DNA from: Escherichia phage vB_Eco_K-01
Sequence record: PQ435593.1
Length of the DNA stretch: 45,245 nucleotides
Reading direction: 5' to 3' (one strand)
Below are positions 27,962 through 31,074 of this stretch, one piece after another (positions within the stretch are counted from its first letter, which is position 1; every line of letters begins with the position of its first letter). Position numbers and translations under genes: made by a program. The notes beneath the pieces are model-generated. The model was not told the origin of the DNA and made no database searches. It worked only from the letters and a program-made list of their open reading frames with translations.

Positions 27962-30300
27962 TATTTAAACCCCGGCGCGTTTCTTGTGGCCTTGCGGGCC
28001 TTGCTAATCTTACTGTTGCTGTTCTGCAAAGATGCAGCAACTTGCTCTTCTATGATGATACGCAGACGGCCTTCATCATCCTGCTCGGTGGATACGTTGC
28101 CAATCTGACTCGATGTATTATTTACAATGGTAACATTAGATGGGCCGGAAGAAGACCCGTTTTGCCCCATAATTTCTTTCATCTGCTGCGCGGTGCGCAC
28201 ACGCGATGCGCCAGCGGGCATGATAACTTCGGGTTTACCGCGTTCAGCGATGGTGGAAGCCTGCCCGGCGGATAACTGTCCACCCTGTTCACGTGCTGAC
28301 CTGATAGCGGAAATCTGCGCCATACCTGCCCCGACGGCAGCGGCAGCGGCTACAGGGGCCAGGAACGGGCCAACAACAGGGATAGCAGCCGTTGACTTGT
28401 ACGCCTCGATAGCTGCGGTGTACGTGGCTATAGTGGCCTGTACGATAGCGAATGCCTTGTACGCACCAGAAGCCTCGCCCAACGCAGACCCGATGTTTGA
28501 AGCCATGTTACCGAAAGCTGTTGCCGTTGCGTCGGCACGCTTGGTTGCGTACTGCTCGTTGATGGCGTTAAGCGCGGCCTGATACTGCTTCTCGCTAATC
28601 AGACCTTGTTCCCGGTACTTATCGGCTACCGCCAGTTTCTGCTGTTCCTGAATATCCAGAAGCTCAAGCTCGGTGGCGTTCTGGCCCATAATCTGAGCCA
28701 TGAAATCATCACCTTTCTGCTGCTTCTCCTGGGCTTCTTTCCTTTTCTTGTCCAGTTCTTCCTGGCGGGCCTGTTCGGCAGAGAGCATAATCTGCGTCTT
28801 GGCGTTTTCGTACTGTTGGTCGCTAAGAAGCTTATTGCTATAAAAATCCTGCAACTTAGACAGTTGCTCTTCCTGGTTAGCTTCTATTTTCTGAAATACG
28901 TCATCATTAAGATGGATTGACTGATAGTAGAAGTCTTCCGCCGCCTTTTTCTGGCGCTCGAACGCGTCCGCTGCTTTCTTAGCGGCTTTTGCGGCTGACC
29001 CGTCATCGTCAGAACCGCCGCCGGTTCCGGTTACCTTAAATTTGTTTAACCCCTCAGCTTTTGCGGACTCCTTATCGATGTCATACGCCGCGCGTTTTAA
29101 CGCTACAATATCCTGTTGAGCTTCTACCTGTTCGCGGAAACTTTTACGCGTAACGTCGGCGACATCGCGCTGGGTATCCAAAGCCATGCCAAGCTGGAAG
29201 TTGATATTTTTAGCTACGTCTACTGATTCCCCGGGGGTAAAAGCGGCGCGTACAAGACGGCCAGCGTCCTGAGCACCTTTAACCATATCTTCAAAGAATC
29301 TCTCCATCGCGGTGAACTCTTCCGCGATGAAGTCAAGAGCATCGGCGGCGGATTCAGCGATGGTGGTGGCCGTTTGTTCTCCGCTATCGGTAATACTCTT
29401 GCTGCTGAAATCCCACAGTTCATTAAGCCCGTTGATGGCATCACCAACAAAGCCAAACGCAGCGTCGAATGACATCTCGATAGCGCTTCCTACTTCCGAC
29501 GCTATGTCGCCCCACATCTGCATTTCAGCGGCTAATTCACCGGAAGCAACAGACGCGTTTAATTCCTGGATCAAGTCATCGATATACCTGATAGGTTCCG
29601 CAAGTGCGCCAACATCAAGACTGGTGGCAAGCGTCATTTTTAGCTGCGACCATGAGTCACTGGCGCTCGCGATAGCGCCATTAAGGGTGTTGGCCTGGTC
29701 CGCCATGGCACCGGCAAAATTTACGTTACCAATATTAAGTAAATACTGCTCAATATCGGCAGCGCTTTTCTTAACTACGGTTGTTGTCCCCTGGAATGTA
29801 AACTCTACGTCGTTTTTGTTCTGCTTGGCTTTGATGCCGAATTCTTTTAGGCGTTCGAACTCAAACGTACTGGCGTCGGCTACCGCCTCAATCATCTGAT
29901 TAAGGTCCTTGCCCATAGCCGATGCGGTATTGCCGTAGGACCGCAACGCCTCCTCGGATGGGGTAAGGCCAAGGGCCACCAGCTTACGGAAGCCTTCCAC
30001 CGCCTGCTCCAGTCCGTATGGGGTATCGCGGGCAAAATCTTGCAGGATACTTAGCGCCTGTTTAGCACCTTGGGTACTTCCTGTTAAGGTCTTCAAACTG
30101 GCGGACATCTTGTCCAGTTGCCGCTGTGAGTCAACCAGTTCTTGGGCAGCTTTATACGCGGTAGCCGCTACGATAGAAGCAAGGCCTGCTACGGCGGCCC
30201 CCGCTACTTTTGCGGACTTTGAAAGGTTGTCAAGACGGTCTGATGTGGCTTTCGCGCCTTGCTCTGTTACTTTTACTACTAAACTAGCTACATCAGCCAT
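27961..30300 (-). CDS. tail tape measure protein
   Basis: 779 aa, largest tail gene. Long alpha-helical/coiled-coil composition (A/E/K/Q-rich), a Gly/Ala-rich hydrophobic segment near the C-terminus, and the canonical position after the chaperone pair. Confidence 0.8.
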   Translation of the reverse strand: MADVASLVVKVTEQGAKATSDRLDNLSKSAKVAGAAVAGLASIVAATAYKAAQELVDSQRQLDKMSASLKTLTGSTQGAKQALSILQDFARDTPYGLEQAVEGFRKLVALGLTPSEEALRSYGNTASAMGKDLNQMIEAVADASTFEFERLKEFGIKAKQNKNDVEFTFQGTTTVVKKSAADIEQYLLNIGNVNFAGAMADQANTLNGAIASASDSWSQLKMTLATSLDVGALAEPIRYIDDLIQELNASVASGELAAEMQMWGDIASEVGSAIEMSFDAAFGFVGDAINGLNELWDFSSKSITDSGEQTATTIAESAADALDFIAEEFTAMERFFEDMVKGAQDAGRLVRAAFTPGESVDVAKNINFQLGMALDTQRDVADVTRKSFREQVEAQQDIVALKRAAYDIDKESAKAEGLNKFKVTGTGGGSDDDGSAAKAAKKAADAFERQKKAAEDFYYQSIHLNDDVFQKIEANQEEQLSKLQDFYSNKLLSDQQYENAKTQIMLSAEQARQEELDKKRKEAQEKQQKGDDFMAQIMGQNATELELLDIQEQQKLAVADKYREQGLISEKQYQAALNAINEQYATKRADATATAFGNMASNIGSALGEASGAYKAFAIVQATIATYTAAIEAYKSTAAIPVVGPFLAPVAAAAAVGAGMAQISAIRSAREQGGQLSAGQASTIAERGKPEVIMPAGASRVRTAQQMKEIMGQNGSSSGPSNVTIVNNTSSQIGNVSTEQDDEGRLRIIIEEQVAASLQNSNSKISKARKATRNAPGFK

Positions 30301-30652
30301 CGTTTCTACCCTCGAAAATAGCGTCTAAGCTCATGATGATGTCGGATTCGAACATCCCTATATTCTGGCCTGAAACGGTGCTGTACGCCACTAAATCTGA
30401 CCATCGTAATTGCTCGCGCGGGTACATCTTGATGCCGTCGTCGTCCACTCGGCGGGTGAATTTAATTTCCCTGTACTTCTCAAATGTGGTTAGTAGCTCA
30501 GGGGGGCATTCCGGCCCAGCGGCCTGCGTTGCATCCGGCGCGTCTTGCATAACCCCCATAGCAATTAGCGCGGCTTTATGCCCATCGGCGATACTGTCAA
30601 ATTCCCGCCGTTTGTGGCGGGTTATGAAGTTCCAACGGGCGAACTGGAGCAA
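30293..30652 (-). CDS. tail assembly chaperone, frameshift-extension ORF (gpT-like)
   Basis: Lies in the -1 frame relative to the upstream chaperone ORF, and that frame is open back across its stop (reads ...ATGKVDALLQFARWNF). Consistent with a G/GT-type programmed frameshift; the slippery site is not a canonical heptamer. Confidence 0.45.
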   Translation of the reverse strand: MLQFARWNFITRHKRREFDSIADGHKAALIAMGVMQDAPDATQAAGPECPPELLTTFEKYREIKFTRRVDDDGIKMYPREQLRWSDLVAYSTVSGQNIGMFESDIIMSLDAIFEGRNDG

Positions 30653-30657
30653 CGCGT

Positions 30658-31074
30658 CTACTTTTCCTGTAGCTGGTGCAGTTGTTCGTTATGAAACACA
30701 ACAACAAGTTCCGCGAGTCGTTTATATTGCGTCAGGAGTGTGTTCAGATTCTCTTTATTGAATTCGTCGTCAAGGCTCCACCCGTTAACCAATTCAATCG
30801 CTAACTGACGGTTAAGGTCCGTCGCCGCGTCTTCCATCTTCAGGTTGTATTCAGAGAAATCTTTCATCTCTTCGCACTTATCACGAAGCGGTTTTAATTT
30901 CCCTAATACTGCCCGGTATGCAAGGGTGAACGCGCGCATAGCCTTAACGGCAACGTCCGCCTCAGGAGAAACAACATTAAGCCATTCCCCGGAATCAGTA
31001 CCGTCTTTTAGCGGTATCGGCATACGTGCGCCCTTTTCGGCTTCCGCTTCGTAATAAAAATCAGAAAGTTTCAT
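30658..31074 (-). CDS. tail assembly chaperone (gpG-like)
   Basis: 138-aa acidic protein directly upstream of the extension ORF and the tape measure; ATG at 31074. Confidence 0.55.
   Translation of the reverse strand: MKLSDFYYEAEAEKGARMPIPLKDGTDSGEWLNVVSPEADVAVKAMRAFTLAYRAVLGKLKPLRDKCEEMKDFSEYNLKMEDAATDLNRQLAIELVNGWSLDDEFNKENLNTLLTQYKRLAELVVVFHNEQLHQLQEK

Follow-up and report, generated by a model that had tools for sequence, protein, structure and literature searches.

Two tail assembly chaperone frames of Escherichia phage vB_Eco_K-01 are very probably joined by a -1 ribosomal frameshift at a conserved A_AAG preceding a stop codon

In phage lambda, the stop codon of gene G lies several codons past the shift site, and in prfB, the best-known programmed "shifty stop", a +1 shift takes place at CUU_UGA with the help of an upstream Shine-Dalgarno (SD) sequence; "shifty stop" frameshifting was reportedly described by Weiss et al. 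in 1987. The -1 site of lambda is given as G_GGA_AAG (Levin, Hendrix & Casjens 1993; Xu, Hendrix & Duda 2004, 2013, 2014, as cited in PMC5009743). Tetranucleotide sites of the form Z_ZZN are also known, among them those of IS1222 (G_CGA_AAG), of cdd in Bacillus subtilis (A_CGA_AAG) and of synthetic A_AAG constructs (PMC5009743, PMC4066793). A_AAG is the most efficient -1 tetranucleotide in E. coli (PMC4066793; PMC5009743), yet tetramers need a stimulator for percent-level shifting, and a reporter with A_AAG but no stimulator showed shifting of only some 0.15%, where the background was 0.11% (PMC4066793). The heptamer G_GAA_AAG has served in experiments as a "less slippery" sequence, at which only tRNA-Lys is able to slip, and in vitro it gave mainly the zero-frame product (PMC6924986). 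Since shifting at both A_AAG and G_GAA_AAG is low in published assays, some enhancer must be needed.

Here we examine a pair of reading frames in Escherichia phage vB_Eco_K-01, genus Kagunavirus (PQ435593.1; the window, i.e. the whole stretch of DNA that was analysed, is 45,245 nucleotides long). The pair and the tape measure gene are all encoded on the minus strand, and an earlier note on this DNA had taken the two frames for a G/GT-type pair upstream of the tape measure gene. The features are as follows:

31082..31086, minus strand: Shine-Dalgarno-like AAGGA, 7 nt 5' of the ORF1 ATG, as read from the sequence
31074..30658, minus strand: ORF1, G-like tail assembly chaperone, 138 aa, ATG start, the product of normal translation
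30689..30691, minus strand: TAA in the -1 frame, the upstream limit (28 nt) of a productive -1 shift
30661..30667, minus strand: putative shift site G_GAA_AAG, with the tetranucleotide A_AAG at 30664..30661, in the ORF1 frame, as its conserved core
30658..30660, minus strand: zero-frame stop TAG directly 3' of the shift codon, a candidate "shifty stop" enhancer
30650..30655, minus strand: GCGTTG (family consensus NCG-YUG), invariant in nucleotides, 6-11 nt past the shift codon
30293..30661, minus strand: predicted T-like extension, which shifted ribosomes would read in the -1 frame as GTA GAC GCG TTG and onwards to TGA
30652..30293, minus strand: ORF2 as mechanically listed, 119 aa, TTG start
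27961..30300, minus strand: gene for the 779-aa tape measure protein, which matches phrog_1538 (E=4e-206) and Pfam TMP_3

Both frames belong to curated families of tail assembly chaperones, ORF1 to Pfam Phage_TAC_4 (PF08748; E=1.1e-7, 32.5 bits against a gathering cut-off of 21.1) and ORF2 to Phage_TAC_18 (PF23812; E=1.4e-18, 67.2 bits against a cut-off of 27). In addition, a single PHROG profile of 259 positions, phrog_15027, spans the two ORFs, its positions 1-138 matching ORF1 (E=2e-50) and its positions 143-259 matching ORF2. A search for homologues of solved structure by sequence returned no significant match. The pair lies 5' of the tape measure gene, whose ATG overlaps the end of the T-like extension by 8 nt (ATGGCTGA), and downstream of the Phage_tube_2 tail tube gene (34668..33496) and the terminator genes, which share its strand and are separated from it by a 2.4-kb block on the opposite strand. 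Because both halves match curated chaperone families and the arrangement recurs in relatives, the -1 arrangement is more than chance. The two-gene tail assembly chaperone arrangement is real, strongly conserved, and an ordinary case of its kind. The G/GT-type assignment is thus borne out by the position next to the tape measure gene, by the two chaperone families, by a -1 overlap that is conserved, and by the lack of a conserved ORF2 start even though the N-terminal residues of ORF2 are conserved.

ORF2 is in the -1 frame relative to ORF1 and, as the earlier note had also stated, this frame is open back across the ORF1 stop; it opens 28 nt before the stop, and the arrangement is kept in about 170 of 175 related loci. 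The -1 frame reads TAA (30691..30689) CGA ACA ACT GCA CCA GCT ACA GGA AAA GTA GAC GCG TTG and onwards, and ORF1 ends in CAG GAA AAG TAG (stop at 30660..30658), with the junction string CAGGAAAAGTAG at 30669..30658 on the minus strand. A shift on the last sense codon would add a T-like extension of 122 codons, ending in overlap with the tape measure start, and the predicted fusion is 260 aa long with the junction ...LQEK/VDALLQF... The heptamer G_GAA_AAG does not fit X_XXY_YYZ, which confirms that the junction is not a textbook XXXYYYZ. Here tRNA-Glu would meet a second-position mismatch on GGA, so cognate re-pairing of both tRNAs, as at a canonical heptamer, is not available, whereas the in-frame A_AAG permits cognate re-pairing of one tRNA, as at Z_ZZN sites. 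The further suggestion that the slip site or mechanism may differ therefore holds as far as the heptamer is non-canonical, and has to be tempered in that this heptamer contains A_AAG and is a single base away from the lambda site.

Several other routes into the ORF2 frame were considered and rejected. Readthrough of the stop codon would leave ribosomes in the zero frame, which reaches a TAA 11 codons past the TAG and never enters the T frame. For transcriptional slippage the run of A residues is too short (4 nt here, and 3 nt in the lineages with GCA, GTA or TCA as penultimate codon), and slip sites farther 5' are ruled out by the TAA of the -1 frame 28 nt upstream (7 nt in relatives).

We compared 175 related loci, down to about 45% protein identity, which represent 110 unique contexts (97 for the stop-codon context). 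In approximately 170 of the 175, ORF1 ends in N_NNA_AAG and then at once in a stop. The last codon is AAG in 110/110 unique contexts and never AAA, although AAG accounts for only 45% of the Lys codons of this phage. The penultimate codon may be GAA, GCA, GTA, AAA, GGA, TCA or CAA, i.e. it encodes seven different amino acids, and its third base is nevertheless A in every one of the 110 contexts. A_AAG is therefore conserved throughout, mostly without a full X_XXY_YYZ heptamer; the canonical heptamers G_GGA_AAG and A_AAA_AAG occupy the same position in a few relatives, one of which, RP180, has exactly the site of lambda. In the GCA, GTA and TCA lineages the tRNA on the penultimate codon has no possible -1 re-pairing. 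Five relatives have a -1 frame that is open only 7 nt before the stop (TAA CGC AAA GTA), and the shift must therefore fall on the last two codons of ORF1. Taken with the variable penultimate codon, the conserved A_AAG thus points to the known bacterial tetranucleotide, at which tRNA-Lys slips, as the slip site.

What follows the slip site is conserved as well. A stop directly after AAG, seen in all but 3 of the 175 loci, fixes the Val codon of the -1 frame as GTA, and such adjacency is not absolute, since in one relative (L085) the stop comes one codon later. TAG is the stop in 62 of 97 unique contexts, compared with 2 of the 37 long ORFs in this phage, and in 96 of 97 the stop is followed by A or C; both preferences could instead reflect an amino-acid preference at the next codon of the -1 frame (D, K, A, E, T). 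Farther downstream, NCG is found in 110/110 unique contexts and YUG in 108/110; at 2.0 and 1.92 bits, the wobble positions of GCGYUG stand out from the 0.1-1.0 bits found elsewhere. The adjacent stop and the invariant NCG-YUG are the only candidate enhancers that we found.

Taken together, the pair is very probably expressed by programmed -1 ribosomal frameshifting, in the manner of lambda G/GT. The majority of ribosomes would translate ORF1 and terminate at the TAG, producing the 138-aa chaperone, while in a small fraction the tRNA-Lys on the last sense codon would slip back by one base, from AAG to AAA within A_AAG, and these ribosomes would go on to read GTA GAC GCG TTG and so forth, yielding a 260-aa fusion whose C-terminal domain is T-like. 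The tRNA-Lys alone would have to re-pair, the upstream codon (GAA here) being variable in the family and usually unable to do so. The stop after AAG probably promotes the slip, as the A site would be empty during slow termination and the P-site tRNA could slip, as at a "shifty stop". By analogy with lambda, the N-terminal domain common to both products may coat the tape measure protein, and the T domain, being scarce, may recruit the tail tube protein; the weak slip site would set a fixed, low ratio of fusion to G.

One may also consider that no frameshift takes place, and that a free T-like protein is made from the TTG at 30652, by termination-reinitiation at the YUG 5 nt past the stop, or from an internal ATG. 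Counted from the first base of the stop codon, the TTG lies 8 nt downstream, with an AGGA 12 nt 5' of it; a YUG codon (CUG or UUG) occupies this position in almost every relative, and two separate genes are annotated in many GenBank records. However, this TTG is clade-specific: it is present in only 13 of the 110 unique contexts, with CTG in most lineages and CTC in two, and no SD lies at a suitable distance. In K1G and RP180 the first ATG, GTG or TTG of the -1 frame is 35 nt past the stop, and in Bas73, Eta and Smarc3 it is 92 nt past it, yet the residues before the first start-like codon are conserved (KVxALYxFA.W.F...FD.I..GH.AAL); Lys-Val-x-Ala is conserved in the -1 frame 5' of the YUG codon itself, with Val and Ala invariant. 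ORF2 thus appears to lack a translation start of its own, as expected of a frame read only as part of a fusion. Independent initiation would also leave unexplained both the invariant A that precedes AAG at an otherwise variable codon and the AAG in 110/110 contexts, and the T domain of lambda works only when fused to G (PMC5009743). We therefore regard a free T protein as very unlikely. Still less credible, to the point of deserving practically no weight, is an artefact or decay, i.e. a sequencing error within a single gene or a pseudogenised chaperone. ORF1 is indeed interrupted by additional frame breaks in one old record, that of SS3e, but the junction there is intact, and the same frames are shared by about 170 divergent, independent genomes and metagenome contigs, in which both chaperone parts are conserved at the protein level; as far as sequence comparison can tell, this reading is effectively refuted. 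The single-frame tblastn match in SS3e is likewise no natural in-frame fusion: it is due to the extra indels in that record, and the junction is normal.

As to how the shift is brought about, we tentatively consider it possible that the signal of this family is minimal and structure-free, consisting of A_AAG, a stop right next to it at which termination is poor (UAG in most cases, with A or C after it) and the invariant NCG-YUG, with termination pausing driving a -1 slip in the P site. Alternatively, the same shift might follow the standard route, by which tRNA-Lys slips on A_AAG in the A site (tRNA-Glu being near-cognate when moving from GAA to GGA here) under the stimulation of an RNA structure whose 5' arm, GCGYUG, starts 6 nt past the motif, the adjacent stop being incidental. 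Bacterial stimulatory stems start at a spacing of 5-6 nt, which is indeed where GCGYUG stands, the invariance of its wobble positions would fit a pairing role, and tetramers, as noted, depend on a stimulator (PMC4066793). Moreover, the bases of GCGYUG have a predicted pairing probability of 0.7-0.9 in single sequences, the single-sequence fold for this phage gave z = -2.1, and RNAalifold on 17 sequences produced a possible long-range stem (columns 14-22 with 98-106), with a few compensatory changes. However, RNAalifold on 102 non-redundant sequences predicted zero pairs, and no column pair exceeded 0.2 in the averaged pairing probabilities. Several pairs of the candidate stem from the 17 sequences are lost in 10-35% of sequences, and its paired fraction, at 82%, is barely above the 80% of shuffles; unpairing GCGYUG costs no more than in controls with shuffled codons (mean z from -0.3 to +0.3), and neither the 420 nt downstream nor the 110 nt upstream contain a positionally conserved complement to it. 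A downstream stimulatory structure was therefore rejected as a family-wide feature, its 17-sequence consensus vanishing with 102 sequences. Canonical stimulators were not detected either, there being no conserved stem-loop or pseudoknot 5-9 nt downstream and no SD-like element 10-14 nt upstream; the AGGA seen here, a clade-specific feature, extends into the slip site and hence does not provide an upstream SD-like stimulator at -10 to -14. A structure-stimulated A-site slip thus seems doubtful to us.

The frameshift is already annotated in the close relatives K1G, fFiEco03 and Smarc3, and a further case among chaperones changes no current concept. In the literature on Kagunavirus and Jerseyvirus we found no proteomic evidence of the fusion, nor any genetic data for Kagunavirus, and the papers on phiEc3, Golestan and fBC-Eco01 do not mention a frameshift. 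The record of Escherichia phage vB_EcoS-phiEc3 (Kagunavirus; MZ576217/NC_073323) lists the pair as two hypothetical proteins; here, and in many Kagunavirus and Jerseyvirus records, two such "hypothetical proteins" should be re-annotated as a single chaperone gene that also yields a product by -1 frameshifting. The study of recoding gains from this family a clean comparative example, in which about 170 genomes with seven different upstream codons have kept A_AAG and a stop instead of a heptamer, with no detectable RNA structure. It would also be a handy natural model, in E. coli and Salmonella, of the way in which a weak slip site that relies on one tRNA is adjusted to an efficiency that is low but useful. 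Should the structure-free signal prove true, a chaperone ratio would be set by the -1 equivalent of a prfB-type "shifty stop", and the downstream hexamer would be a sequence-specific, non-structural enhancer of an undescribed kind.

Among known systems, the locus resembles lambda G/GT: the tape measure gene is directly preceded by two overlapping ORFs, of which the second is in the -1 frame, and the predicted shift falls near the end of the first, on the Lys codon of ...A_AAG; the slip site is one base from G_GGA_AAG, and a skewed ratio of G to GT, as in lambda, would be well served by a site of low efficiency. It differs in that the P-site codon GAA permits no cognate re-pairing and is variable in the family, only A_AAG being conserved, and in that the zero-frame stop lies directly 3' of the shift codon. 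Furthermore, the proteins have no detectable sequence similarity to lambda gpG and gpT and belong to different Pfam families (Phage_TAC_4 and TAC_18 here), and the pair is parted from the tail tube gene by the 2.4-kb opposite-strand module. With IS1222, cdd and the synthetic A_AAG sites it shares the predicted slippage of a single tRNA-Lys from AAG to AAA next to an upstream codon that does not re-pair, whereas those sites, and the reporter assays, are stimulated by a pseudoknot, a stem-loop or an SD-like element, none of which is detectable here. A slippery codon in the P site with a stop in the A site, where slow termination gives time to slip, recalls a "shifty stop"; unlike prfB, the shift here is -1, and it is conservation that suggests a role for the stop. 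The closest counterparts are the joined frameshift CDSs of about 260 aa that GenBank holds for Guernseyvirinae and their relatives, namely K1G ORF22A/22B (GU196277), vB_EcoS_fFiEco03 FE3_024/025 (MT711524) and, likewise, the "pre-tape measure frameshift protein" of Serratia phage Smarc3 (MT980832). These genes are orthologous to the pair described here, share its first ORF of 138 aa and its ...GAA AAG TAG junction, and show no substantive difference from it.

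The proposal of the earlier note, that a pair of tail assembly chaperone genes lies here in a -1 arrangement, is borne out by a -1 frame that stays open over the ORF1 stop and by Pfam and PHROG matches. The features concerned are:

31074..30658, minus strand: ORF1, G-like chaperone, 138 aa from an ATG, Pfam Phage_TAC_4, with AAGGA 7 nt 5' of the ATG on the same strand
30667..30661, minus strand: shift site, G_GAA_AAG
30655..30650, minus strand: GCGTTG, the NCG-YUG hexamer
30652..30293, minus strand: ORF2, T-like partner in the -1 frame, mechanically listed as 119 aa from a TTG, Pfam Phage_TAC_18
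next gene after ORF2: tape measure gene, 779 aa, matching tape-measure families

ORF1 ends in ...CAC CAG CTA CAG GAA AAG TAG. The -1 frame, read from its TAA (TAA CGA ACA ACT GCA CCA GCT ACA GGA AAA GTA GAC GCG TTG...), is therefore open from 28 nt before the ORF1 stop and continues through 122 codons, and its terminator TGA overlaps the tape measure ATG (ATGGCTGA). The PHROG profile phrog_15027 ("tail assembly chaperone"), 259 positions long, matches ORF1 at positions 1-138 and ORF2 residues 2-119 at positions 143-259; since one profile spans both ORFs, its database members are already fusions, joined ...EK-VDA-L.... Over the kilobase queried, the window matches Escherichia phage vB_EcoS-phiEc3 (MZ576217/NC_073323) with 100% identity, and the closest classified neighbours of the window are Kagunavirus, subfamily Guernseyvirinae.

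Further upstream on the same strand are the tail tube and tail terminator genes (35081..33496, minus), separated from the chaperone/tape-measure genes by an opposite-strand block (31226-33467, plus) that encodes a superinfection-immunity-like 72-aa ORF, a metallophosphoesterase/"DNA repair exonuclease", small ORFs and a protein with a HAD-type polynucleotide-kinase-phosphatase domain. Because of this block the chaperone-tape measure operon needs its own promoter in 31075-31225, a region in which a simple sigma-70 consensus scan returned none. The mechanical GTG start of the exonuclease-like gene (31378-31482) overlaps the preceding immunity-like ORF; as PHROG similarity sets in at residue 38, translation probably starts instead from the ATG near 31480 (MAQKK...).

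When the predicted 260-aa fusion was used as a tblastn query, 517 phage records were matched, in 494 of which a single place accounts for at least 80% of the query; among the matches listed, nearly all split the query into two pieces, i.e. a frame change. That this frame break is an artefact seems to us next to impossible. Annotated phages, IMG/VR and metagenomes also supplied 181 loci with protein identities as low as about 45%; the ORF1 stop could be located in 175 of these.

Heptamers directly before the ORF1 stop (number of the 175 loci)
G_GAA_AAG: 126
C/A/G_GCA_AAG: 26
G/T_GTA_AAG: 11
G_GGA_AAG: 3
A_AAA_AAG: 3
G_TCA_AAG: 2
C_CAA_AAG: 1

Only three loci depart from the pattern of NNA_AAG followed by a stop. 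Two are records of Salmonella phage SS3e (L005 and L034; NC_006940.2/AY730274.2), where the ...GAA AAG TAG junction is intact and extra indels inside ORF1 of this old entry, probably sequencing errors, cause tblastn to align the whole fusion in one frame. The third, L085 (IMGVR_UViG_2162886012_000023), reads GCA AAG TTA TAG, which puts the stop one codon further on, and has a -1 frame of AAA GTT ATA GCG CTG. In no other relative is the zero-frame stop set apart from A_AAG, and L085 offers a natural test of whether their adjacency is important.

The family-wide invariant of the slip site is the tetranucleotide A_AAG. Across 110 unique sequence contexts the last ORF1 codon is always AAG, a codon with only a 45% share of lysine codons in the window phage, and the penultimate codon, which may be E, A, V, K, G, S or Q, always has A as its third base (2.0 bits, vs 0.01-1.14 at other nearby third positions). 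In five loci a -1-frame TAA stands directly 5' of the heptamer (TAA CGC AAA GTA), leaving a productive window of only 7 nt, so that the shift must fall on the last two codons. What the comparative data show is a -1 shift that depends on A_AAG and falls on the final two ORF1 codons, the predicted product being a 260-aa G-T fusion. A distant homologue with 25% identity and the same two-ORF -1 layout, Stenotrophomonas phage A1432 (L033, NC_073027.1), ends ORF1 in GTT TCA AGC TAG, without A_AAG and with an ATG 2 nt after the stop; its route to second-ORF expression may differ.

One may also consider independent initiation or reinitiation at ORF2, which we regard as very improbable. Where the window phage has its TTG, most lineages carry CTG and two carry CTC, and the first start-like -1-frame codon lies 35 nt downstream in K1G and RP180 and 92 nt downstream in Bas73, Eta and Smarc3, whereas the residues before it are conserved, several invariantly (K-V-x-A-L-Y-x-F-A-x-W...FD-I-x-GH-x-AAL). 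Judging from these codons, the ability of ORF2 to initiate on its own is not a conserved trait.

The 3' context of the shift site is also constrained. In 97 unique contexts the stop directly after AAG is TAG (62), TAA (34) or TGA (1), which forces the -1-frame Val codon to GTA; TAG terminates only 2 of the 37 long ORFs of the window. The following base is A in 78 contexts, C in 18, T in one and never G. Poole, Brown and Tate reportedly found in 1995 that A and C are weaker fourth bases for E. coli termination; an amino-acid preference at the next -1-frame codon is an alternative explanation. NCG-YUG, 6-11 nt after AAG, is invariant including its wobble positions (2.0 and 1.92 bits) in about 110 unique relatives, in which it has no conserved pairing partner; the window phage encodes only 30% of its alanines by GCG and only 35% of its leucines by CTG. 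Unpairing the NCG-YUG segment costs no more energy than in codon-shuffled controls.

A standard A-site tetramer slip, driven by an RNA structure that escaped detection, is possible but rather unlikely. In E. coli the shift-proneness of Z_ZZN sites runs A_AAG >> U_UUC > ... > A_AAA, and shifting on A_AAG is 5.6% with the IS3 pseudoknot but falls almost to background, about 0.15%, when no stimulator is present (PMC4066793). The downstream fold of the window sequence has a modest z-score of -2.1, and a 17-sequence alignment hinted at a stem in which columns 14-22 pair over a long range with columns 98-106, some changes being compensatory. This stem was rejected as a family-wide feature: several of its positions lack pairing in 10-35% of sequences, and its paired fraction of 82% is scarcely above the 80% of column shuffles. 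Against such a structure, RNAalifold on 102 non-redundant sequences gave zero pairs and no column pair had a mean pairing probability >0.2. An SD-like element was likewise absent 10-14 nt upstream of the shift site. Within the T coding region lies a perfect 6-bp GC hairpin (30605-30622, minus; CCCGCC-ACAAAC-GGCGGG), which is clade-specific and, at about 39 nt after the slip site, too far away for a conventional stimulator.

We propose instead a P-site slip, in which tRNA-Lys would be the sole re-pairing tRNA, the adjacent and probably weak stop would favour slippage by leaving the A site empty, and Val-tRNA would then read GUA. Efficiency would be low, at most in the percent range, and would fit a chaperone pair needed in unequal amounts, as in lambda (30:1, PMC5009743). 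By analogy with lambda, the G domain may bind the tape measure and the T domain recruit the tube protein.

The frameshifted chaperone is already known from annotation of close relatives. A joined two-piece CDS covers the orthologous pair in K1G (GU196277, ORF22A/22B), vB_EcoS_fFiEco03 (MT711524, "putative tail assembly chaperone frameshift product") and Serratia phage Smarc3 (MT980832, "pre-tape measure frameshift protein"), while many other records, that of phiEc3 included, have two separate genes or hypothetical proteins. Our search of the Kagunavirus literature yielded no paper in which the frameshift is discussed or demonstrated. The signature of A_AAG, stop and NCG-YUG without a structure recurs consistently in about 170 genomes, a neat detail of possible interest to specialists in recoding.

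The G/GT-type reading of the earlier note was correct, the frameshift being real and strongly conserved. Its description of the slip site as non-canonical is strictly right, since G_GAA_AAG does not fit X_XXY_YYZ (tRNA-Glu would meet GGA, a second-position mismatch), but the site belongs to a class already described, and the system is not a new kind. Peng et al. used AUG GAA AAG as a "less slippery" control, in which tRNA-Lys alone can slip and which gave mainly zero-frame product (PMC6924986), and upstream codons that do not re-pair have precedents in IS1222 (G_CGA_AAG) and Bacillus cdd (A_CGA_AAG) (PMC5009743). The window site is one substitution apart from lambda G_GGA_AAG, and this lambda-type heptamer is found at the same position in Raoultella phage RP180 and two metagenomic relatives.
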